From a virus (lineage: Duplodnaviria > Caudoviricetes), in IMG/VR virus record IMGVR_UViG_3300025389_001063: a DNA stretch of 64,000 bases. One strand, 5' to 3'. This document shows, piece after piece, positions 1-41,751 of this stretch. The translations under genes were made by a program, and so were the position numbers. Within the stretch, counting starts at the first letter, position 1. Each line of letters opens with the position of its first letter. The notes beneath the pieces are model-generated. The model ran no database searches and had not been told where the DNA came from. It saw nothing but the letters and a program-made list of their open reading frames with translations.

Positions 1-127
1 CTGCCCTTCACGCGGATCATAGTAAAGGATTCTACCGTTGGCGTATGTAAACGGGCCCTCTAGTCCTTTGCGAGGGCCAAACCCGTGATCGATATGGGGA
101 AGAACAGTATAGCCCATTTGATTCTCC

Positions 128-313
128 TTAATCTATCAAGTCCCCATCACTGAACTCAATGTCTACTTCATAGTTCCAGTTCTTAGAACGTTCTTCAGGG
201 GTAGCATCGAAGAACTGCTTCTCTGCTTTCTGGACTGCCTTCTTGGCACTCTTGGCTTCTACTTCGATAGCGTAGCGGACGATCTCTTGTATTTCTACGA
301 TGAACTTAGCCAT
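128..313 (-). CDS. small protein, DpnD/PcfM-like
   Basis: KFIVEIQEIVRYAIEVEAKSAKKA pattern; GGA RBS; upstream TTGACA promoter at 361-366. Confidence 0.5.
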   Translation of the reverse strand: MAKFIVEIQEIVRYAIEVEAKSAKKAVQKAEKQFFDATPEERSKNWNYEVDIEFSDGDLID

Positions 314-328
314 TTGACGTTCCTTTGT

Positions 329-544
329 TTATGCTGCTAATATAGCATCACTGTTCAGTGTGTCAACCACTTGGGGAAGTCCTGCTTCCTCACTGAGCAT
401 TTTTTGAACTATCTCGTAGGAGTCATACCCTCCCTGTTCTAGTGCTACCTCTCTAGCCCAAAAGCGAGCCTCATCTAGTGTGCGATAAACGCCCAGCATA
501 TCTGATTCACCGTATTGTAAACATCCTACGAGTATGTACAGCAT
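329..544 (-). CDS. hypothetical early protein
   Basis: ORF; GGAG RBS 6 nt before ATG at 544; promoter at 593-598. Confidence 0.6.
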   Translation of the reverse strand: MLYILVGCLQYGESDMLGVYRTLDEARFWAREVALEQGGYDSYEIVQKMLSEEAGLPQVVDTLNSDAILAA

Positions 545-581
545 CGTCAACTCCTATTGCTTATGATGCTATAATAGCACC

Positions 582-806
582 TTAGTCCATATTGTCAACC
601 TTGAACCAATCTTCTAAGATTTGATCTCGCCAAGCAGCCATATTCTCTAAGCCCACGTGTTCTTCCACATAATGATTAATATCTTCGTGGGGGAATTTAG
701 AAAGATCCCATAGTGCTTGTTTGAGAGCATGTACGGCACTCTCGGCTCTGGAGAAAGTCATCTCCAGACTTTCATGTGCTTCTTGCATTTGATTATTGAT
801 TGACAT
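582..806 (-). CDS. hypothetical protein
   Basis: GGAGG RBS before ATG at 806 (MSINNQ...). Confidence 0.6.
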   Translation of the reverse strand: MSINNQMQEAHESLEMTFSRAESAVHALKQALWDLSKFPHEDINHYVEEHVGLENMAAWRDQILEDWFKVDNMD

Positions 807-814
807 AATACCTC

Positions 815-1834
815 CTACTTCAGACATGTAACAATAGCATAGTCTTGCCAACGGTCTTTGAATGACTTCTTCAAGTCCGCTAGTTTAAGTATAGTACGCA
901 ATGAGAGCTCTCTGAGTTGCTTCTTGTTTGAGTCGACGAATTCTAGTATCTCGTCAACTTCTTCTTGTTCGAAGTTATAGTCGCGTAGCATACCGTCTTC
1001 GACAATCTGTTTGATACGTAGTATCTTATCGCGCTCACTGTCAATAGTGAGATCAACATAATGACTTCTGGATTCAAGAGCATCGAGGTGATCCTTCAGT
1101 TTCTTCGATTTGACATGATCGAATTTGATGTTAGTGATAAAGATAGCACTCGCTTTAAACTCAAAGCGATTTGGAATACCTTCACGTTCAAGCAAGCGAC
1201 TATCGGTATTCCAACTAATGTAACGACGCTTGCTGGAGTCTAGAGCAGCCTTGAGAATGTTTAGTGATAAGTCATCTAAGAGTACGCTATCGCAGTCGTC
1301 GAACACGATAACATTACCTGCTTCACTGTACTCGTATAGTTTAGCGTACAAGCCCAAAGCACTCATCGCACCTTTAACAATCTCGTACTTAGGCTTCTTG
1401 TTACCGATGGTGTTGAATAGGTCTGATTTAGCCAATTGGGCTTCGACACCAAAGGACTTACCGACGCCCGGTGGTCCACTAACGATAACAGCCCGTACAT
1501 TACCTTCTTTGGCAGCCTGTGTGATATCGGATAAGATTTTAAACCTTCTGCGGAGTCGTTCCTTAATCTCACTGTCAGTCTCCGTTGCTATATGCTTCTC
1601 TATATGATCGCTAATGTTGCCGTTTGATATCGAGTACGTACCGGTTGCTTGGGATACGCGGATGCGAATGTTGCGATCAGGGAAGCCGCGAACAGCACGA
1701 GCATCAACCGTGACATAATAGCCCTTGTCATCTTCTTTAGTCTCCTCTACGAGTGGAAACACCATACCAGCGACACTCTGAGGCTCACCTTTGATATTAT
1801 ATGTGCCCTCAGAGAACTTAATGAGAATGGACAT
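815..1834 (-). CDS. AAA+ family ATPase (conserved jumbo-phage type)
   Basis: Walker A GPPGVGKS, Walker B IVFDDCD, sensor-1 IFITN; start trimmed to MSILIKF. Confidence 0.85.
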   Translation of the reverse strand: MSILIKFSEGTYNIKGEPQSVAGMVFPLVEETKEDDKGYYVTVDARAVRGFPDRNIRIRVSQATGTYSISNGNISDHIEKHIATETDSEIKERLRRRFKILSDITQAAKEGNVRAVIVSGPPGVGKSFGVEAQLAKSDLFNTIGNKKPKYEIVKGAMSALGLYAKLYEYSEAGNVIVFDDCDSVLLDDLSLNILKAALDSSKRRYISWNTDSRLLEREGIPNRFEFKASAIFITNIKFDHVKSKKLKDHLDALESRSHYVDLTIDSERDKILRIKQIVEDGMLRDYNFEQEEVDEILEFVDSNKKQLRELSLRTILKLADLKKSFKDRWQDYAIVTCLK

Positions 1835-1974
1835 TCGTCTTATCCTTCTTACGGTTGTATACTTTTTTGGATTTAACAATACGCTTGCGAAAGAGCGGGT
1901 TGCTCAACGCAGCAGCATAAGGGTTATACTTACTCATCGCTCTCTCCTTATGCTGCTACTATAGCACCTATACT

Positions 1975-2208
1975 CTATGCGTCAACCCCCATGTGAAGTC
2001 TATCGCGAACTTCTTGTTCAGCCGCCCAATCCTCGAGCAATTTGGTAGCAGACTTAACCTGAGCAGCAACAGTAGGATGAGTCTCGATCAATCCCTTAAG
2101 GAATGACTCATAGAAGCCCGCTTGATAGTCAAACCCTGTGTGGGTAAGTTGGCTAGAACGACGGTTAACAGCGTCTTGAAAGCGCTCAAAAACGGATACT
2201 TCTGACAT
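1975..2208 (-). CDS. hypothetical early protein
   Basis: ORF with GGAG RBS and own TTGACA promoter (2255-2260). Confidence 0.6.
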   Translation of the reverse strand: MSEVSVFERFQDAVNRRSSQLTHTGFDYQAGFYESFLKGLIETHPTVAAQVKSATKLLEDWAAEQEVRDRLHMGVDA

Positions 2209-2261
2209 GCTCTGCTCCTTTGTTTATACCTTATAATAGCATAATGTTAGGGCTTGTCAAC

Positions 2262-2579
2262 CTATCGGCAGTATTGTCTACGAACCCAGCCATAGCGTTC
2301 GTCCCATCCACGACTATTAGTGCATCGATATGGTCGAGCAACCTCGACTTGTTCTTGTATAGCAACAGGCGGAGCCATGACTGCTGGGGGTGGAGGGGGA
2401 GGTGCTGCCATAGCACGAGAAGCAATAGCGCCTCCGATCATACCCCCGATGAGCCCCATTCCCATTTCCATGCCATAACCGCCATAGCCCCACATAGGGC
2501 TTGATCCCCAAAACTGAGCATGAGCAGGTGTTGCTGCTAGGGCAACAGCAACGACCGTTGTGGCTAAGACTTTACGCAT
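2262..2579 (-). CDS. secreted Gly/Pro-rich protein with glycine zipper and C-terminal Cys pair (Rhizobiales-type)
   Basis: signal peptide MRKVLATTVVAVALAATPAHA; GLIGGMIGGAIA; poly-Pro; C...WD...GWV...C. Confidence 0.7.
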   Translation of the reverse strand: MRKVLATTVVAVALAATPAHAQFWGSSPMWGYGGYGMEMGMGLIGGMIGGAIASRAMAAPPPPPPAVMAPPVAIQEQVEVARPYRCTNSRGWDERYGWVRRQYCR

Positions 2580-2751
2580 AGTCTTGTTCCTCATTGTAGA
2601 AGTATTGACGATCAAACCATTGGACTACATCTTCTTCAGTCCACATATGGGAGGATGGTAAGCAATGATACTTCTCACGATATGCTTCCCTGAATACTTC
2701 CCAGAGTGCTTCGTTTACAATAGCACATACTTCGTTTTTTGGTATTCCCAT
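2572..2751 (-). CDS. hypothetical protein (59 aa, not in ORF track)
   Basis: MGIPKNEVCAIVNEALWEVFREAYREKYHCLPSSHMWTEEDVVQWF...; GAGG RBS; promoter at 2792-2797. Confidence 0.55.
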   Translation of the reverse strand: MGIPKNEVCAIVNEALWEVFREAYREKYHCLPSSHMWTEEDVVQWFDRQYFYNEEQDYA

Positions 2752-2801
2752 CGTGTCCTCCTATAATACATATTAGCATCTAATTGGACTGTGTCAACCA
2801 A

Positions 2802-2885
2802 TGGTATCCGCGGCCGGACTCGAACCGGCACGAACAAGTCGAGGGATTTTAAGTCCCTTGTGTCTACCAATTCCACCACGCGGAC
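2802..2885 (-). tRNA. trnL: tRNA-Leu(TAA)
   Basis: cloverleaf GTCCGCG/CGCGGAT, anticodon loop CT-TAA-AA, long variable arm, GTTCGAG T-loop, encoded CCA. Confidence 0.95.
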
Positions 2886-2886
2886 A

Positions 2887-2963
2887 TGGTGCCCCCACTC
2901 AGACTTGAACTGAGAACCTGCGGTTTATGAGACCGATGCTCTAACCGATTGAGCTATGAGGAC
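2887..2963 (-). tRNA. tRNA with CAT anticodon (Ile2 precursor or elongator Met)
   Basis: cloverleaf, loop CT-CAT-AA, G1:C72 pair (not initiator), encoded CCA. Confidence 0.9.
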
Positions 2964-3106
2964 TATTCAGCAGCATACTTCTCTATGATTGCAATAGCTT
3001 GATCGATATGTTCCATGGCTTTAGTTAAAGCATCTTCGTTGCCTTCTAAACCTTCAATAATCTCGAAAGCATTATTGAGCATATCTAAAACTTCTTGCTT
3101 CTCCAT
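2963..3106 (-). CDS. hypothetical protein (47 aa)
   Basis: MEKQEVLDMLNNAFEIIEGLEG...; GGAGG RBS. Confidence 0.5.
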   Translation of the reverse strand: MEKQEVLDMLNNAFEIIEGLEGNEDALTKAMEHIDQAIAIIEKYAAE

Positions 3107-3154
3107 AGCTGCCTCCTATTTTCTAGTATATAGTGAGTAGAGGCACTCGTCAAG

Positions 3155-3176
3155 AAAAAAGGGGGATTTCTCCCCC
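3155..3176 (-). terminator. intrinsic terminator
   Basis: on the - strand GGGGGA-GAAA-TCCCCC followed by TTTTTT, just after ORF 3183-3512. Confidence 0.8.
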
Positions 3177-3182
3177 TATTCT

Positions 3183-3512
3183 TTAAGCGAGTTCAGCCTT
3201 AGGAACAAAAGTCGGTTGAGCGATATTCGCCTTAGTCTTAGCCTTAGGTGCCTTAGCAGCAACCTTAGGGGTCTGCTTTACATTCTTAGCAGCATAATCC
3301 GCGAACACCGACTGAGCCTCTGTGTTCTCAAATAGTGCCAGCGTGGACAAATACGCCACAGCAGCGTCCTTTGACATAGCCTGAGGCAACTCAACTAGGT
3401 CAATGTCCTTATGACCATTGCGCTGAAGCACCTTGACTCGCGTAACGAAGTCATTGGCAAAGCGAAGCTTGAGAGCACCATTTTGACGTGAAAGACCAGC
3501 AACTGTAAACAT
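3183..3512 (-). CDS. conserved jumbo-phage hypothetical protein with Lys/Ala-rich tail
   Basis: MFTVAGLS...KLRFAND...RVKVL..NGH.DI.L.ELP..M.K; GAGGAG RBS; promoter at 3582-3587. Confidence 0.7.
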   Translation of the reverse strand: MFTVAGLSRQNGALKLRFANDFVTRVKVLQRNGHKDIDLVELPQAMSKDAAVAYLSTLALFENTEAQSVFADYAAKNVKQTPKVAAKAPKAKTKANIAQPTFVPKAELA

Positions 3513-3591
3513 ACTTAACTCCTCTTCTGTGTGTGTTGGGCACCATTGCCCATAGTCCTATAATAGCACCTCTATGAGTGCTGTCAACCGG

Positions 3592-3888
3592 TTAAGCCAT
3601 AACCGGATCTATGACAGGTGCTAACATATTAGCCGGCACCCGATAATTCCCACGCGACGTATTCACAATCACGTTCTTCTGCATGACCTTCTCTACTGTG
3701 CCAAATAACTTCTGACCAGCACGGTTAGTGAACGATACCTTAGAGCCAGATCGCACCATAGAAGTATTACGCTTAGCCAATTGAGCCCTACGATACTTCA
3801 TAGCATCGATGAGCATATTAAGTTCATCATTAGAAGCTTCGAATTGAATGAAGCTGATAGCAGCATTACGAGCAGCAACAGTAGACAT
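3592..3888 (-). CDS. hypothetical protein with SH3/KOW-like C-terminus
   Basis: GSKVSF...GTVEKVMQKNVIV...YRVPANML; AAGGAG RBS. Confidence 0.6.
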   Translation of the reverse strand: MSTVAARNAAISFIQFEASNDELNMLIDAMKYRRAQLAKRNTSMVRSGSKVSFTNRAGQKLFGTVEKVMQKNVIVNTSRGNYRVPANMLAPVIDPVMA

Positions 3889-3943
3889 ATCCAACTCCTT
3901 AGTTCTCATCCTATACCTTACTATAACACCTTATTCGATAGTG

Positions 3944-4120
3944 TCAACCAGCTAAGAAATACCAAAACCCAGCAACAATATAGAATCCAAACATCATATT
4001 GCGAACCCAATCAATCTTGAAACACATCAAGCCAGTGAATAACCAAACCGAGGCTATGACCATCCCATATTCGTTAAGGTTGATCAAAGTTAATGCAGCA
4101 GCAAGTAGGATCGCATACAT
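3944..4120 (-). CDS. small membrane protein
   Basis: hydrophobic 58 aa; GGAG RBS; promoter at 4164-4169. Confidence 0.55.
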   Translation of the reverse strand: MYAILLAAALTLINLNEYGMVIASVWLFTGLMCFKIDWVRNMMFGFYIVAGFWYFLAG

Positions 4121-4335
4121 TGGCTCTCTCCTTATGCCCTTAGTATAGCAGGGGCTGTCCAATTGTCAACCCCTGCTTGTTTACAATCAAGGCACTCTGA
4201 TAAAAGCCGCATCCCCCCTCTTATTAAAGATCACAGCCTGAGAATTCTGCAACCATGACTCCTTCTCGGCAAAAGCCTTGGCATCTTCCCAATTGTCGAA
4301 CTTTTGAGTTACCTTACCAATCTTGACTGTAAACA

Positions 4336-4806
4336 TTATTCTGACTCCTCTTCTTCCTCTTCCCACATAGCATTATTCTCACTAATAGAAAACTCCATAT
4401 CGATGTCTTCAGGAATATCCTTAGTGCCTTCATAGCAGTCGTCCTCACCATCAGTCCAACGACCACAGAAGTCCATGCCTGGCTCATAGTAGAATGCATC
4501 TACTTCAAAGTCTAACTCTACCAAATGCTCATAGAACGCCAGTGGAGGTGACCAAGCAGTCTCAAATGATAAGTTCAATTGATCAAACCTTATAGCAGCA
4601 GGACTATCGAAACCACGCTCAACATCCCACTTGGTGCCCCAGTTCTCTAGGTTCCAATTATACCAACCTTCACCCTCTAATAGCTCTGGGGGAGTAGGGA
4701 GGAAGGCTTTGAACAAGCCCTCACCATTATAACCAGCCGCCGCCTTCTCTAGCATGGCTCGGTCTTTGTGCTTAAGATAAAGTGTATTTGAACACCAATT
4801 AGGCAT
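4336..4806 (-). CDS. conserved phage protein (MPNWC..., YubB ferredoxin-like/DUF1281 type)
   Basis: MPNWCSN, WNLENWGTKWD, FETAWSPP, YYEPGMDFCG motifs. Confidence 0.7.
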   Translation of the reverse strand: MPNWCSNTLYLKHKDRAMLEKAAAGYNGEGLFKAFLPTPPELLEGEGWYNWNLENWGTKWDVERGFDSPAAIRFDQLNLSFETAWSPPLAFYEHLVELDFEVDAFYYEPGMDFCGRWTDGEDDCYEGTKDIPEDIDMEFSISENNAMWEEEEEESE

Positions 4807-4848
4807 AGCAGCCTCTCTTGTTAGAGTTTACGATTATATAATAGCACC

Positions 4849-5277
4849 TTACGCGGGTATGTCAACCAGCTCCTTATCGCTGTTGCGGCACTCCCACTTG
4901 CCGTTTACATATACATAGGAGTAATCCTGCCCGCGATCATCTGCGAGGAACTCATAGATATCTTTATATTTGTGAGCCTTTGTGCATGTCTCACCACGAT
5001 CGCGTCCATACGCTTTACACCAGTTCTCGGTGCGGGCTTCATATGCGGCACGCTCTGCTTCAGGAACTTCAAACTGGCTAAAGGCATGCTTACGACCAAT
5101 CTTTGGTCCTAGCACAGATAAGTCCCCTAGCTTTATGAGATTAACGATCTTACTAGGAGTATTATAATGGTCCCGCAAGATACGACCATTATGCTCTGGA
5201 TAACCGTCCCAGTGGCAGTAGATGCCCTTAACAAACCCGTTCTCGTCCATAACACCGATTAAGCTGCGAGTGCCCAT
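4849..5277 (-). CDS. conserved phage hypothetical protein
   Basis: MGTRSLIG...IYCHWDGYPEHNG..L..HY family motif; AGGAG RBS. Confidence 0.7.
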   Translation of the reverse strand: MGTRSLIGVMDENGFVKGIYCHWDGYPEHNGRILRDHYNTPSKIVNLIKLGDLSVLGPKIGRKHAFSQFEVPEAERAAYEARTENWCKAYGRDRGETCTKAHKYKDIYEFLADDRGQDYSYVYVNGKWECRNSDKELVDIPA

Positions 5278-5435
5278 TGTAGGCTCCTTGTTAGCGTTTA
5301 TGATATTACTATAGCACCTTAGTCTTCTCTGTCAACCAAGTCCCATAGGTTGATCAAAGCATAGGAGACGAACAAACCAATCACACTACCAATTAACACG
5401 CCTACTATAAACATCGTTGTCTCCCTTGCTTATGA

Positions 5436-5648
5436 TTATATAATAACATCATCCCGGAATCTGTCAACCTCGGCTAAGTCACTAAAATCTATAGCAGTTC
5501 CCACGAGCCAACGACGCTTGGCTTCATTGGCTGTTGACATATCCTTATAGCCCACAGCGAATGCAAACTCGTCATCCTCCCAGAAGTTAACAACCCAAAT
5601 AGCATTGCCGTCTATAGTGAAGTCTATCTCTGATTTACATTCACGCAT
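5436..5648 (-). CDS. hypothetical protein
   Basis: GGAG RBS; promoter at 5693-5698. Confidence 0.55.
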   Translation of the reverse strand: MRECKSEIDFTIDGNAIWVVNFWEDDEFAFAVGYKDMSTANEAKRRWLVGTAIDFSDLAEVDRFRDDVII

Positions 5649-5711
5649 GATATGCTCTCCTATAGTCACAATAATAGCGTCGAATTGAATTATGTCAACC
5701 GACGCTATTGA

Positions 5712-6074
5712 TTAGAACTTTAAAGGTGGAACTGATTGTGGGATGCTACCAGGCACATTCGATGGCGGTGGAGTTACTGGCTTTCCTACTGACATAACCA
5801 ACGGGCTAACAAATGGAGAAAAATTATTCCATCCCTCTCCAGAAGCCGGAAGAGTGTTGTTATCAACTGGGGTAATATCTAATATTCTTCCCTGCCACGC
5901 AGCAACAGAACTAGCAGCCTGAGCCCAATTTAAAAGAGCATCTTCTGGATTGATCTGATTACTGAATACATAACGAATGGTGATGTCATATACTGTAGCA
6001 TCTAATCCCGCAGGAACCTGTGTCATTAGATACTGATTCTCTGAGAGTAATTCTGGATTCTTTGGTTGAGCCAT
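5712..6074 (-). CDS. hypothetical Pro-rich protein
   Basis: GAGG RBS before MAQPKN. Confidence 0.6.
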   Translation of the reverse strand: MAQPKNPELLSENQYLMTQVPAGLDATVYDITIRYVFSNQINPEDALLNWAQAASSVAAWQGRILDITPVDNNTLPASGEGWNNFSPFVSPLVMSVGKPVTPPPSNVPGSIPQSVPPLKF

Positions 6075-6086
6075 GCTATTCCTCAA

Positions 6087-6305
6087 TTAACCTATTTTAG
6101 TTACGTCTGTGATAGAAGTTCCTGGAACAAATGGAGGCTGAGTACTAGCGAACTTGCCAGTCATCATGTCTGCTAATAATTGTTCAATGTCTGAACCCTT
6201 AGGTATACTGAAATTCAAAGTGACACTGTAAATGTCATGTGAAGCATCAGGTACTAGGGGTGTTTCAAATAATTGTACTAATGTTGGATTTGTTGGTTTT
6301 ACCAT
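6087..6305 (-). CDS. hypothetical protein
   Basis: GGAG RBS; TAAATA upstream. Confidence 0.55.
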   Translation of the reverse strand: MVKPTNPTLVQLFETPLVPDASHDIYSVTLNFSIPKGSDIEQLLADMMTGKFASTQPPFVPGTSITDVTKIG

Positions 6306-6347
6306 AGTTTCTTCTCCCTTGCAAGGTAAACTATTTAGCCTGCTAGG

Positions 6348-6424
6348 TGGCGATTCCGGAACGATTCGAACGTTCGACCTGCTGATTAGAAGTCAGCTGC
6401 TCTATCCTGCTGAGCTACGGAATC
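6348..6424 (-). tRNA. trnR: tRNA-Arg(TCT)
   Basis: cloverleaf GATTCCG/CGGAATC, loop CT-TCT-AA, encoded CCA. Confidence 0.95.
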
Positions 6425-6425
6425 A

Positions 6426-6501
6426 TGGTGCCCGAAGACGGATTCGAACCGCCGACCTACTGATTACAAATCAGTTGCTCTACCAGCTGAGCTATTCGGG
6501 C
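6426..6501 (-). tRNA. trnT: tRNA-Thr(TGT)
   Basis: cloverleaf GCCCGAA/TTCGGGC, loop TT-TGT-AA, encoded CCA. Confidence 0.95.
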
Positions 6502-6686
6502 GCTTTTATATGCTGCTTCATCTTACGTCGGAACTCTGCTACACTGTGAAGTCTATATACTGCTTCACGAACACTAAGTCCCTCATGGTATGCTGAGTAT
6601 ATATCACCTCCGGTGACCTTGTCAATGGGAAATCCGACTGCTCTCAACTCATTAACAAATTGCTGAAATGCTGTTCCACTAGACAT
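6492..6686 (-). CDS. hypothetical protein
   Basis: GGAGG RBS; 3' end overlaps tRNA-Thr by 10 nt. Confidence 0.5.
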   Translation of the reverse strand: MSSGTAFQQFVNELRAVGFPIDKVTGGDIYSAYHEGLSVREAVYRLHSVAEFRRKMKQHIKAPE

Positions 6687-6741
6687 ATATCCCTCCCTAG
6701 ATGAAGAGTGGGCAGATTAACCGCCCACTATTGTTTATTTA

Positions 6742-6987
6742 TTAAGCGAAGATCTTAGCGCGGCTACCTGTGATATCACGGGCACTCACAGCATACTTCG
6801 CACGTCCCTCTTGAGTCTTCTCACGACGAATCCGTAAACCAACAGCACGTAGATCGCTAATGCGAGCACGGAGGTTGCCAATGCCATATGTAGCACGAGC
6901 TTGAGCCTCTGTCAATGTGCGGCCAGTACCACGAAGATAGTCTTCAAGAAACTCTACCTGAGAAACTGTTAAATGAGTAAATGCCAT
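6742..6987 (-). CDS. winged helix-turn-helix DNA-binding protein
   Basis: LRGTGRTLTEAQARATYGIGNLRARISDLRAVG, a wHTH pattern. Confidence 0.7.
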   Translation of the reverse strand: MAFTHLTVSQVEFLEDYLRGTGRTLTEAQARATYGIGNLRARISDLRAVGLRIRREKTQEGRAKYAVSARDITGSRAKIFA

Positions 6988-7070
6988 ATTGCCTATTCCT
7001 TTGTCAATGCGCTGTCTACAGCGTCTTTATACTATAACAGCGCATATGACAAAGATCAAGCAGTTTGGCT

Positions 7071-7364
7071 CTATTCGCTCTCAGGCTCGAATTCTTCTTC
7101 AGATATAGCATACTCTACCTGCTCGTCTAGCTCAAAGTAATAGCTCTCAAGCTCATCGCAGACACCGTCAATGTCATAACGATGCTCTGTATAATAGTCG
7201 TAGGCGTGAGCCAATTCCTTAGCACGAAGCGACTTAACAATGGTTTGGAGATGCTCTATAACATTCTCAATGTCAGCAGCTATATAACCTAAGTCGTCGC
7301 TGTCGACAATGTTTAAGTCCTGAGCTACGTTGAGATAAAACATGTTAGGTTCAAAGTCGCGCAT
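7071..7364 (-). CDS. acidic hypothetical protein
   Basis: ORF with GAGG RBS and promoter. Confidence 0.6.
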   Translation of the reverse strand: MRDFEPNMFYLNVAQDLNIVDSDDLGYIAADIENVIEHLQTIVKSLRAKELAHAYDYYTEHRYDIDGVCDELESYYFELDEQVEYAISEEEFEPESE

Positions 7365-7415
7365 GATAGCCTCTCTGTGTTGCTATAGCTTACAATAACA
7401 CAAACGACCCAAAAG

Positions 7416-7721
7416 TCAAACTCCCGACCACCTTACACTATTCCAATTGCGAGCAAGTATATTACCGCGGGCGAAGTTCTTAGCAGGTGACGCATAAGAA
7501 GCAGCCTTTAGAATGTCACCCTGCTTGAACTTGCCATCATCCTGCTTGACAATGAACGAGTGAACACTACGGTCTACAATGACCTTGACATACTTACTTC
7601 CATTAGTGAAATCAACCTTGCGTTCAGCTTCTTCTAATGTATACATACCCGTCTTAGCATAATCAGCCCTAATGTGATCAAGGTAATCTAAGAAGTTGAG
7701 TTGAAAGTCCTTGAAGCTCAT
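7416..7721 (-). CDS. conserved phage hypothetical protein
   Basis: GSKYVKV...VHSFIV...GDILKAASY..PAKN.ARGNI family motif. Confidence 0.7.
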   Translation of the reverse strand: MSFKDFQLNFLDYLDHIRADYAKTGMYTLEEAERKVDFTNGSKYVKVIVDRSVHSFIVKQDDGKFKQGDILKAASYASPAKNFARGNILARNWNSVRWSGV

Positions 7722-7722
7722 G

Positions 7723-8052
7723 TTAACCCCTCTTGTCTGTGTTCAATACAGGACGATATTGACGAATTAACTCACGCTCTAATTTATGAGCAGCAACCTT
7801 ACCACGCACTATATACTCTGCTTTTATAACAGCTTCACGGCGATCTGTCAATGACCGAAGAGCGCTATAAAGTGACCAATGTAACCGGGCGGGATCATTC
7901 CTCCGGTACCAATGCTTACTAAGACGCGACCAGAGGCTTTTTGGAACAGTAGATTCAGTTTTCGCCGTGACGCCAACATATAGGTCTCCATCTATCGTTA
8001 TTGAATATACGATATGATTACGGTCCACTCGCTTTTTTCTTACTGCTTTCAT
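7723..8052 (-). CDS. GIY-YIG-like nuclease domain protein
   Basis: IVYSI...LYVGVT...RLSKH...LERELI. Confidence 0.65.
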   Translation of the reverse strand: MKAVRKKRVDRNHIVYSITIDGDLYVGVTAKTESTVPKSLWSRLSKHWYRRNDPARLHWSLYSALRSLTDRREAVIKAEYIVRGKVAAHKLERELIRQYRPVLNTDKRG

Positions 8053-8086
8053 AATAACAATATACACTCAATTCCAAACTAGTCAA

Positions 8087-8285
8087 CCACTAGATATAGT
8101 CACTCAGAACACTAGATATAGTGGACTACATATAGTTACCCACTGACTACATATAGTAGGTTGACACTATATCTATAGACGCTATTATAGAATTATGAAA
8201 GCGAACCAGCAATAGCAGACTCGCTAGGGAGTATACTTCGGGGAACCCTGACCTCAAGGTCGTTTACATAAACAACATATAGTCC
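8087..8285. promoter_or_regulatory. cluster of NrdR-box-like palindromes in a divergent promoter region
   Basis: CCACTAGATATAGTCA 8087, ACACTAGATATAGTGG 8109, GGACTACATATAGTTA 8123, TGACTACATATAGTAG 8144, degenerate ACACTATATCTATAGA 8164, AAACAACATATAGTCC 8270; match to acaCwAtATaTwGtg. Confidence 0.65.
8198..8275 (+). ncRNA. candidate small structured RNA, copy 1
   Basis: directly after TTGACA(8161)/TATTAT promoter; 33-nt core 31/33 identical to copy 2; hairpins. Confidence 0.45.
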
Positions 8286-8343
8286 CTGGTTGACATATAA
8301 AATTGTGACCTTATTATCATACTATAAGCAATAGGAGATCCCA

Positions 8344-8583
8344 ATGCGCAAACTGTCCTACTCAGAAGCCTTTGCTCGTATTGAATCCACATCCTGGACA
8401 GAATTGTATACAATGCTCTATGACTCCCACAAGGACTTCTATGGCTACAAGGGTCGCTATCTATATAACTATACCAAAGAGGAACTCCTCAATTGGTTTT
8501 CGGATCACTTCATGTGGGATAACGACGAACAGTTTTGGCGCAATCAAGTCCCCTTTTACGAATACAACCCGGAGGATATGTGA
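8344..8583 (+). CDS. hypothetical protein
   Basis: AGGAG RBS; promoter TTGACA at 8290. Confidence 0.65.
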   Translation: MRKLSYSEAFARIESTSWTELYTMLYDSHKDFYGYKGRYLYNYTKEELLNWFSDHFMWDNDEQFWRNQVPFYEYNPEDM

Positions 8584-8584
8584 T

Positions 8585-8806
8585 ATGCACTATGCTCAAT
8601 TCTATAATCAAACAGCCAAAGGTCTCCTCGAAGCTTGTGGTGATCGCGCTGTTATTATACTAGATGGTAGAGAATCACAGTGGAAGCAGGAACATACCGC
8701 AAGGCAGGAATGTGCCAAAAGAGGTTATGTGGCTTTTAGACTTTATAAAGGTGAGTCATTTACTCGTTCATGGCCAATCTCTCAAATCACAGTTTTGCCA
8801 GGTTGA
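8585..8806 (+). CDS. hypothetical protein
   Basis: GGAGG RBS before MHYAQFY (C-terminal part of track ORF 8372-8806). Confidence 0.6.
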   Translation: MHYAQFYNQTAKGLLEACGDRAVIILDGRESQWKQEHTARQECAKRGYVAFRLYKGESFTRSWPISQITVLPG

Positions 8807-8838
8807 CGCACCCGCTAGTGATGTTAATATAACAATAT

Positions 8839-8917
8839 AAAGCGCACACCCAATAGGGATCGCGTGATGGGTTCAAGTTCCGCCGAACTCTGACCTCCAG
8901 GTCGTTTACATAAACAA
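8839..8917 (+). ncRNA. candidate small structured RNA, copy 2
   Basis: after TTGACG(8803)/TAATAT promoter; no downstream ORF on +; same architecture as copy 1. Confidence 0.5.
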
Positions 8918-8983
8918 AATCGCGACCTAGAAGATCACCCCAGGCGAATGTATACTATACCAATTCACTATAGTATACATTAA

Positions 8984-9415
8984 CTACTTCTTCTGCTGTT
9001 TACATACTTCACCAGTGTTTACAGACTGAGTGCATACGTTTACATTAACTGTGGTGGGCGCTGCTACCGGAACCGGAACAGGGACTTTTTTGTATACAAC
9101 ACGACGCTTGACGACTACGCGATCTCTTACTATAATGCGATCTCTGTATACAACAGCAGGTGGCTGCTGAACTATTACAGCAGGCGGAGTCTCTATTACA
9201 ACAGGTGGCTGAGGAACTACTACTCGTCTCCTCACTATTACTTGCTGTGGATATAAGGTTTCCATAGAATCCACATATGGATTATATCCCGGTGGCGGTA
9301 ATGCTGTTTGTGGCGCAGCATATGGATATCCCGGTCCCGCTCCGGGATAATATTGGGCGTGAGCACTTCCCGCTATTAGTACACTAGATATAGTGGCAAT
9401 CACAATACGTTTCAT
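8984..9415 (-). CDS. secreted Pro/Val-rich protein (Rhizobiales-type)
   Basis: signal peptide MKRIVIATISSVLIAGSAHA; PPVV repeats; C-terminal Cys pair. Confidence 0.7.
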   Translation of the reverse strand: MKRIVIATISSVLIAGSAHAQYYPGAGPGYPYAAPQTALPPPGYNPYVDSMETLYPQQVIVRRRVVVPQPPVVIETPPAVIVQQPPAVVYRDRIIVRDRVVVKRRVVYKKVPVPVPVAAPTTVNVNVCTQSVNTGEVCKQQKK

Positions 9416-9526
9416 GCTTTAGACTCCCTATAATAAGACTATACGACGATATATAGTACCTGTCAACCATGGTCTTGGCGTGTTTTGAATGCTAGATATA
9501 GTAGATCTATACACTAGATATAGTGG
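9381..9526. promoter_or_regulatory. second cluster of NrdR-box-like palindromes
   Basis: ACACTAGATATAGTGG 9381 and 9511, ATGCTAGATATAGTAG 9489, degenerate CGACGATATATAGTAC 9444 inside the promoter with TTGACA at 9461-9466 (-). Confidence 0.65.
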
Positions 9527-9712
9527 TTGACCGTGGTGACGACAGGCTTAGTTCAAATGGTATCTTTCCGATTTTGTCCAAGTTCTTCCTATTCACCACT
9601 ATATCGACAATCTATCTCTATAGTAGTTCGCCTGTCTAATCGCCGCGTTCAAGCCAGCGACTACTGTGGATCTCGTGTGCTTATAGCAGCGCCCACAGCT
9701 TTCCTAAGATGC

Positions 9713-9966
9713 ACAGCGGGGCCACTATGCATTAGGATCTCTATCGTCGTTTGCATGTATATCCAAAGGCGGCACAGCGGGGCCAGTAGTATTCCATTTA
9801 GTTCCTGCTAGTACCACCAATGGGATTGTTCTTTTTATAAAGTAAGTACCAGTTGTTACAGCGGGGCCTTTAAATACAGCATATGTTTTAACGGGACCTC
9901 TACTACGTTTACGATTAGCCTTTTTAAAGAAGTCTTTAAGATCGTTCATTATGTTACAGCGGGGCC
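9713..9966. repeat. four dispersed copies of the 11-mer ACAGCGGGGCC
   Basis: exact copies at 9713, 9774, 9858 and 9956. Confidence 0.9.
9725..9949 (-). CDS. possible hypothetical protein
   Basis: ORF only; contains the GPAV-coding repeats. Confidence 0.3.
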   Translation of the reverse strand: MNDLKDFFKKANRKRSRGPVKTYAVFKGPAVTTGTYFIKRTIPLVVLAGTKWNTTGPAVPPLDIHANDDRDPNA

Positions 9967-10140
9967 TGTATGTAGAGTATCAGTATATGTATTTGTGCCT
10001 TCTATACGATCTAGTAGTGTCTGTTCTAGTTGTTCAACTTCTGCTTCTAGTGCTCTAGTTTCCCTATAAAGTTCTACTAGTCTGTCTTTCTTTGGTACTA
10101 GTATAAGATTGTATAGTGCTATTTCTTCTATGCTCATCAT
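9949..10140 (-). CDS. hypothetical protein
   Basis: coupled ORF in leftward array. Confidence 0.5.
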   Translation of the reverse strand: MMSIEEIALYNLILVPKKDRLVELYRETRALEAEVEQLEQTLLDRIEGTNTYTDTLHTGPAVT

Positions 10141-41121: not shown

Positions 41122-41751
41122 ATGAGATATCAGTTTCCAAAGATTGAGCATATTAACGATGTGCTACCCGCTATTCAGGACTCTCCCGAATTTATTGTGG
41201 CGGAGCGTGAATACTTCACTGTGATTAACTATTTGGTTTCACATCCGGAGACCTTTCCCGAAGTGGACGAATCTCCCGAATTAGAATATGATCTGATCGC
41301 AAAGCGTAACGCTATCCGTCGTGAATGCCGCGGACTTATCTTCTGTAAGACTACCGGTAAGATACTTCGGAGACCGTTTTCCAAATTCTTTAATATTGGA
41401 GAGCGAGACGAAACCCAACTTCATTTGTTAGACTTCACTGGTTCGCACGAGGTCTTTACCAAGGAAGACGGTTCTATGGTAACTCCATTTGAAGTTGGTT
41501 TTGGTTCCGGTGTAATCCGTTGGGCGACAAAGATGGGATTATCGGATGTGGCTCTGAACGCAGAAGTGTTTGTGGCAGAAAATCCAAAGTATCAAGAGTT
41601 TGCCAAATGGTGTATTGCCAATCGGCTAACTCCTATATTTGAATGGGTAAGCCGCAAGAATAGAATTGTTCTCGACTATCCCGAGGATAATCTTATTCTT
41701 CTTGCTGTTCGGCATATGGAGACGGGAGAATATCTTCCTTTGAAGGTATAG
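41122..41751 (+). CDS. rnlA: T4 Rnl1-like RNA ligase, N-terminal fragment
   Basis: ECRGLIF, KFFNIGE, motif I KEDGS, TPIFEW, LILLAVR; ends in TAG at 41749-41751. Confidence 0.85.
   Translation: MRYQFPKIEHINDVLPAIQDSPEFIVAEREYFTVINYLVSHPETFPEVDESPELEYDLIAKRNAIRRECRGLIFCKTTGKILRRPFSKFFNIGERDETQLHLLDFTGSHEVFTKEDGSMVTPFEVGFGSGVIRWATKMGLSDVALNAEVFVAENPKYQEFAKWCIANRLTPIFEWVSRKNRIVLDYPEDNLILLAVRHMETGEYLPLKV

Follow-up and report, generated by a model that had tools for sequence, protein, structure and literature searches.

A promoter-driven two-hairpin element as a candidate structured non-coding RNA of a phage clade

Two similar elements, spaced 642 bp apart in the same orientation, lie in the 64-kb stretch of phage DNA analysed here (the window), and they raise the question of whether such a unit works as an RNA, as a site in the DNA or as a joint at which genes are exchanged. 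A sequence-only reading of the locus had described two homologous, promoter-driven small RNAs with covarying stems and had suggested that they act as early decoys. We checked the stretch by pattern counting, repeat searching, folding and comparison with relatives. The duplication itself is real: the copies span 8195-8275 and 8837-8917, a 28-nt pattern of their common core matches exactly twice in 64 kb (8248-8275 and 8890-8917, against 0 matches expected) and the repeat search returned 36 nt at 92% identity (8243-8278 versus 8885-8920). The features of the locus are collected in the table below, in which the upstream copy is called c1 and the downstream copy c2.

The description of both copies as lying behind sigma70-like promoters was also borne out. 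P1, P2 and P3 belong to a class, GGTTGAC-N16-TAWTAT, with 13 sites in the 64-kb window versus 0.01 expected, and comparison of the sequence downstream of every such site places +1 at a fixed distance. For c1 and c2 the predicted +1 falls at 8195 and 8837, in both cases 7 nt past the -10 box, which gives AUGAAAGCG and AUAAAGCG as the predicted 5′ ends of the transcripts. The start had earlier been placed at AAAGCG, which is indeed promoter-proximal but lies 2-3 nt downstream of the predicted +1. Downstream of promoters of this class the standard early leader of the phage is AUAAGCAAUAGGAG-N6-AUG. What follows c1 is a further promoter (P2) and not directly a gene, and no terminator was found between c1 and ORF79. 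P3 is set into the end of the preceding gene, the TGA within its -35 box being the stop codon of ORF73, and it is retained in all seven genomes compared, where the variants TATTAT and TACACT leave the -10 box usable.

Table. Features of the locus, in window coordinates
Feature	Position	Strand	Remarks
Promoter P1	8161..8188	+	-35 TTGACA 8161-8166, 16-nt spacer, -10 TATTAT 8183-8188; precedes c1
Copy 1 (c1)	8195..8261	+	5′ hairpin retained; GACC-UCAA-GGUC hairpin at 8250-8261
GTTTACATAAAC 12-mer, first	8262..8273	+	16 nt upstream of P2 -35 box; DNA motif
Promoter P2	8290..8317	+	drives ORF79 and ORF73 via leader AUAAGCAAUAGGAG
ORF79	8344-8583	+	cargo gene
ORF73	8585-8806	+	cargo gene
Promoter P3	8803..8830	+	-35 TTGACG, TG-extended -10 TAATAT; precedes c2
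Copy 2 (c2), conserved RNA	8837..8900	+	two hairpins
Optional hairpin GACC-UCCA-GGUC	8892..8903	+	other sequence instead in 4/13 copies
GTTTACATAAAC 12-mer, second	8904..8915	+	
Convergent-terminator zone	8922..8981	no strand	minus-strand terminator-like site 8938-8922

The comparison rests on six relatives that are syntenic with the window and about 68-83% identical to it in nucleotides over coding stretches. Five are metagenome contigs (L024-L028), found in a scan with a hairpin-plus-12-mer pattern, and the sixth (L029, JBJTKU010000021.1) is a contig of a metagenome-assembled genome (MAG) found in a scan of species-representative genomes, which covered 185,579 species with the exact pattern GACCTNNAGGTCGTTTACATAAAC only. 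These seven genomes hold 12 copies of the element, and c2 with its promoter occurs in every one of them. The upstream copy is more variable: L024 lacks it, L025 and L027 have one with another 5′ hairpin, and in L028 and L029 it is nearly identical to c2 except that the inner stem is swapped. In the window, c1 lacks the central block GGGUUCAAGUUCC and carries GGGAGUAUACUUC there instead, although the block is invariant in the other 11 aligned copies save for one extra U in two. The sequence-only reading had proposed a covariance model from related phages as a check; such a model scores c2 at 105.3 bits and the window's c1 at 71.7 bits. The window's c1 is a decayed paralogue, and at least one copy is dispensable, since that c1 has lost the invariant block and L024 has no c1.

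Other collections yielded nothing comparable. Megablast and blastn searches of 7700-9500 and a tblastn search of ORF79 found no match among 50,697 phage records, IMG/VR scans with two core patterns, ORF79 and a 143-aa neighbour returned nothing, and an IMG/VR scan with a central-block pattern gave only two chance matches, both in coding sequence. A scan of metagenomes with the ORF79 protein was likewise empty. A 114-aa GIY-YIG-like gene at 7723-8067 (minus strand), which falls below the Pfam cut-off, did have relatives at 23 IMG/VR loci, none with shared synteny or the core; because these relatives share no neighbouring genes with the window, the gene appears to be of an endonuclease type that is mobile and free-standing. 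The 5.7-kb contig L029 was binned with a 1.2-Mb ‘Candidatus Planktophila’ (‘Ca. Planktophila’) MAG. That MAG holds no second copy elsewhere, and covariance model R1 has no match in 150 further genomes of the MAG's family, so L029 is a stray phage contig and not evidence of host carriage. A host feature of that family was accordingly rejected as the source of the element, model R1 matching the stray contig only. The binning is probably an artefact and is at most a weak hint to the host.

Within this set of genomes the downstream copy stands out from its surroundings. Positions +1 to +58 of c2 have a mean identity of 91% across genomes (84-97% relative to the window copy), compared with 75% for the c2 promoter, 51% for the upstream coding sequence and 56% for the downstream sequence, and the ORF79 protein shares only 56-57% identity with its relatives. 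Conservation of the block extends from +1 as far as CUGACYU at about +64, or ~64 nt. Neither strand has an ORF that is conserved across the element. Conserved mini-ORFs were considered and rejected: MKANQQ* and MKSQ* occur in some c1 copies only, the AUG at 8867 is absent from L024-L027 and the minus-strand frame has no start codon. Known RNA families do not cover the element either, as only tRNAs reach the Rfam gathering score in the window and 8100-9050 returned nothing plausible at E values up to 10. A tRNA-like origin was likewise set aside, with ARAGORN and Rfam seeing no tRNA at the locus and the phage's own T-arms being different.

That the element is kept as a fold was examined on the alignment of copies (alignment A1) with 500 shuffles and with controls in which the 3′ partner was slid by 1-3 columns. 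In c2 the 5′ hairpin, which begins at about +6, consists of an outer stem H1 (8842-8845 with 8862-8865) and an inner stem H2 (8849-8851 with 8856-8858) closed by an AAUA loop. This AAUA-loop hairpin within GCG/CGC pairing, already described from the sequence, folds in both copies. Paired cells amount to 93.5% in the alignment versus 83.5% in the shuffles, none of which reached as high (0/500), and only 18-48% of cells pair in the slid-partner controls. Six pairs have changed on both sides, all of them in the 5′ hairpin. The outer stem is GCGC/GCGU or, in L024-L027, GAGC/GCUC, and is different again in the c1 of the window and of L025; the inner stem CCC-AAUA-GGG is replaced by GGA-GAUA-UCC in the c1 of L028 and L029 and reads CCU/GGG in L026. 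RNAalifold, run with no supplied structure, returned H1, H2, H3 and part of H4, and when each copy was folded singly the same interrupted 5′ hairpin came back every time, also from copies that differ in sequence. In folding energy the copies are unremarkable (z from +0.5 to -2.1). The comparative base for these counts is seven closely related genomes with about four independent stem variants. Thus the covarying stems claimed for a promoter-driven non-coding RNA find support in compensatory and G-U-preserving changes across six relatives, and in a c2 that is more conserved than its flanking genes.

The second hairpin behaves differently from the first in that it shows one-sided changes only, C/U opposite G. 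Two mutually exclusive folds fit it equally well. In fold (i), GGGUUC pairs with GAAYYC (in c2, GGGUUC 8869-8874 with GAACUC 8885-8890) and H4 forms a hairpin of its own, while the extended fold has GGGUU/GACYU enclosing AGUUC/GAACU (in c2, GGGUU 8869-8873 with GACCU 8892-8896, around AGUUC 8876-8880 with GAACU 8885-8889). An advantage of the extended fold is that its 3′ end is the point at which four variant copies diverge. Nine of 13 copies continue beyond it with a GACC-N4-GGUC hairpin and then GTTTACATAAAC; the remaining four, including the c2 of L028, continue with unrelated sequence containing a ACTAGATATAGT box. The GACC/GGTC hairpin of the earlier description is therefore present in 9/13 copies but is optional. 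In L025, L026, L027 and L028 this alternative 3′ end includes a ACTAGATATAGT-type box.

Palindromes such as these could also be read as DNA-level operators to which a dimeric regulator binds. Both AGTTC-N4-GAACT and GTTTACATAAAC come close to being palindromes, and in the former the N4 spacer varies while the half-sites are kept. The strand pattern of the pairing speaks otherwise. On the plus strand 137 of the 143 cells of H1-H3 pair, compared with 120 of 143 on the minus strand; 17 cells are G-U, and because these pair on the plus strand only, the structure is placed on that strand, which argues against a double-stranded palindrome. Variable positions with C/T opposite G keep the RNA pairing and break the DNA symmetry, and the stems H1 and H2 swap their sequence completely. 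We consider a purely DNA-level operator highly improbable.

One part of the locus does look like a DNA site. The sequence-only reading had let both copies end in a single 33-nt core, with a GTTT/AAAC hairpin as its last helix. The 12-mer GTTTACATAAAC, to which this supposed hairpin corresponds, occurs in 29 exact copies in the seven sequences, with one constant orientation. Only nine of these are inside element copies, and the others lie 4-21 nt upstream of promoter -35 boxes on either strand, or in clusters downstream of c2 in L025, L026 and L029, where a 22-bp spacing recurs. With up to one mismatch the window has six copies versus 0.7 expected. Because 20 of the 29 copies are outside elements, promoter-upstream or clustered, GTTTACATAAAC is a separate 12-bp DNA motif, and RNAalifold did not return a GTTT/AAAC helix. 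The core is thus no single RNA module; the 3′ end of the RNA is joined in it to a motif that also occurs away from any RNA element. The GTTTACATAAAC of c1 belongs to the upstream region of P2. Judged by its sequence and distribution, the motif is probably a regulator-binding or iteron-like site.

The possibility of iterons brings to mind a replication origin. The T4 origin oriE depends on an early promoter and contains small early genes and 12-nt direct repeats (PMC3016281), and the present locus, in a T4-like genome, likewise has an early promoter, small early genes and 12-nt direct repeats. On an origin model of this type, an early transcript would enter a repeat-rich region and prime DNA synthesis, with the 12-mers as iterons, and the relatives do have three to six same-orientation 12-mers downstream of c2 at the recurring 22-bp spacing. 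The window, however, has two exact 12-mers only, and 12-mers also precede many ordinary promoters. In T4 the iterons, which lie within gene 5 at a spacing of 24 bp, read GTTGAAGGTAAT and are unrelated in sequence to the 12-mer. Nor does an origin model predict a conserved RNA fold. An origin module of the oriE type is in our view very improbable.

A stronger case can be made from what lies between the two copies. The cargo differs in each of the seven genomes: it is ORF79 with ORF73, ORF79 with an unrelated gene, a version with an added 102-aa ORF, or nothing but a 35-aa peptide. The relatives lack any homologue of ORF73, and an unrelated gene of about 53 aa takes its place in L024, L025, L027 and L028. 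Both ORF73 and this replacement end in ...PG* because the P3 -35 box encodes their last codons and stop. Among T4-type phages, PeSLs are sigma70-like promoters with stem-loops that mediate such shuffling (Arbiol et al. 2010, PMC2839356; Comeau et al. 2014, PMC4122927), and the likeness is considerable: a near-consensus sigma70-type early promoter is joined to stem-loops, and such units recur within a hyperplastic region of a T4-like genome, with ORFans beside them, at points where relatives have gained, lost or replaced genes. The unit could accordingly be a mobile regulatory cassette of this kind with no RNA-specific role, its promoter and hairpins acting mainly as a homologous recombination site and as a transcript-end buffer for ORFan cassettes. 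P1, P2 and P3 are sigma70-like early promoters, the window contains an array of the same early promoters, direct copies bracket a cargo that differs in every relative and L024 lacks c1. Recombination, however, depends on identity and has no need of compensatory pairing or of a G-U pattern confined to one strand. The hairpins here are downstream of +1, transcribed from the unit's own promoter, and have 3-6-bp stems; they are not G+C-rich terminators with U tails, and no PeSL-style terminator or attenuator stem-loop was found, there being no U tail and no plus-strand terminator-like site. Unlike in PeSLs, the 64-nt fold is kept by compensatory changes, and no Shine-Dalgarno sequence, start codon or gene comes after the conserved copy c2. 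The reshuffling of cassette content between relatives matches the shuffling role of PeSLs in T4-type phages, which does not account for the fold itself. We therefore regard a PeSL-type cassette without any RNA role as unlikely.

The position of c2 narrows the choice further. As the sequence-only reading had it, no ORF follows this copy: the plus strand downstream has none in the window, nor in any of the seven genomes, and in the window about 12 kb of minus-strand genes lie there instead. A terminator scan found no canonical plus-strand terminator after c2 or in the zone 8922-8981, and neither a plus-strand intrinsic terminator nor another defined 3′ end was found after c2. In that zone a perfect 13-bp inverted repeat (8947-8959 with 8969-8981) adjoins the stop of a minus-strand gene at 8984-9415. 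Units of GAATGTATACTATAC form hairpins in the same zone, once in the window (8946-8981) and up to five times in relatives (L028:3743-3960; L029, reverse strand, 560-660), the zone growing from 67 nt to about 300 nt.

An arrangement with two copies near early promoters is known from phage HK022, in which putL and putR are similar elements of about 70 nt with two interrupted stem-loops near the transcript 5′ end (PMC9378689). A put RNA binds the zinc-binding domain of the RNA polymerase beta' subunit and in cis suppresses termination ahead of genes that depend on read-through. By analogy, the nascent two-hairpin RNA might bind its own RNA polymerase and confer resistance to pausing and termination. 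In support, each genome combines what HK022 combines, namely two similar copies just downstream of early sigma70 promoters, about 64-70 nt long, with two stem-loops that have internal loops and that start within a few nucleotides of +1. The likeness seen is one of architecture. Behind the universal copy c2, however, there is neither an operon nor a terminator to which read-through could apply; transcription running on from it would go antisense into the minus-strand genes, and c1 has no terminator between itself and its operon. A cis-acting role of this kind thus seems improbable.

The absence of a gene behind c2 is better matched by an RNA that acts away from its site of synthesis. Small RNAs of the 3′-UTR type with their own promoter inside the end of the upstream gene form the DapZ and MicL class. 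The present locus resembles them in that the stop codon of the operon's last gene falls within P3, with the RNA placed at the operon end before the convergent-terminator zone. It differs in that no Hfq-type terminator, seed or target was found, and duplex energies of the RNA against 291 start regions in the window were no better than those of shuffled RNA.

Two specific decoys had been put forward for such an RNA, besides a possible sponge for an RNA-binding regulator. Racr RNA anti-CRISPRs and ToxI-type antitoxin RNAs are small phage-borne structured RNAs that have been proposed as decoys, and a ToxI-type (type III) antitoxin is a tandem array of about 36-nt repeats beside an endoribonuclease toxin gene. 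The present RNA is likewise small, structured, non-coding and promoter-driven. Among the representatives of 185,579 species, however, the exact pattern GACCTNNAGGTCGTTTACATAAAC, the only form of the element scanned for, occurs in no genome save the one mis-binned phage contig, so no CRISPR array there carries the hairpin-plus-12-mer pattern, and model R1 is absent from the 150 other genomes of that MAG's family. The copies stand 642 bp apart and not in tandem, and the neighbouring proteins include no Pfam or PHROG toxin matches. Both a mimic of a CRISPR repeat and a ToxI-like antitoxin consequently have very little in their favour; a decoy role in the general sense is conceivable.

The reading that we prefer, at a probability of roughly 0.55, is that c2, from 8837 to about 8900, gives rise to a structured non-coding RNA, as yet undescribed and specific to this phage clade, which is transcribed early from a sigma70-like promoter of its own. 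What we present for it is the promoter class, conservation above that of the neighbouring genes, compensatory and G-U-preserving changes, plus-strand polarity and the absence of a conserved ORF. Its 5′ hairpin drifts in sequence but keeps its pairing, and the second hairpin, near-invariant as GGGUUCAAGUUCC...GAAYYCUGACYU, may offer a sequence-specific binding surface. The molecule would then work at the RNA level, most probably in trans and with a protein as its partner, and such a role is the most economical one because c2 has no downstream gene. In its place at the end of an operon c2 resembles a 3′-UTR-type small RNA with its own promoter. c1 would be a paralogue from duplication of the promoter-plus-RNA cassette, serving at most as a leader for the operon beside it; in some lineages it is decaying or has been lost. 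Between the direct copies lies a set of ORFan genes whose content is reshuffled from one relative to the next, and the 33-nt core is the RNA 3′ end abutting a 12-bp promoter-upstream DNA motif. A bolder and doubtful extension of this candidate RNA is that it constitutes a protein-independent, put-like polymerase-modifying element or a dedicated early decoy RNA of a freshwater jumbo T4-like phage lineage, in which case the GGGUUCAAGUUCC hairpin would bind host machinery.

To our knowledge, comparative support is rare among the non-coding RNAs of T4-like and jumbo phages, and we know of no such RNA from uncultured freshwater jumbo phages. The locus offers a compact candidate of ~64 nt with an identified promoter, natural compensatory variants and a natural ‘knock-out’ in the window's c1, which makes it directly testable. 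It also indicates that, in place of a terminator, an RNA fold under selection can be part of a PeSL-like shuffling cassette. For readings made from sequence only it holds a caution, since an apparent single core turned out to be two unrelated adjacent features.

Several further observations concern the surroundings of the locus. Window positions 1-10000, with the early cassette array and the locus, have a G+C content of about 44%, versus about 29-41% (mostly 32-39%) in 10001-64000. Boxes of ACTAGATATAGT and ACTACATATAGT lie at window 8089-8157, 8167-8180 and 9383-9524, where they fill the divergent promoter region and one falls in the P1 spacer; matched by eye, they fit the NrdR-box consensus. 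Direct repeats of ACAGCGGGGCC occupy window 9711-9970 and are also present in L026 (reverse strand, about 1-210). Lastly, the predicted +1 of an early promoter is in some cases also the first nucleotide of an ORF: a 209-aa gene at window 41122-41751, a 26-aa membrane peptide ORF at L029:1438-1518:- and the mini-ORFs that open some c1 copies (window 8195-8215). From their placement, these are candidates for leaderless mRNAs.
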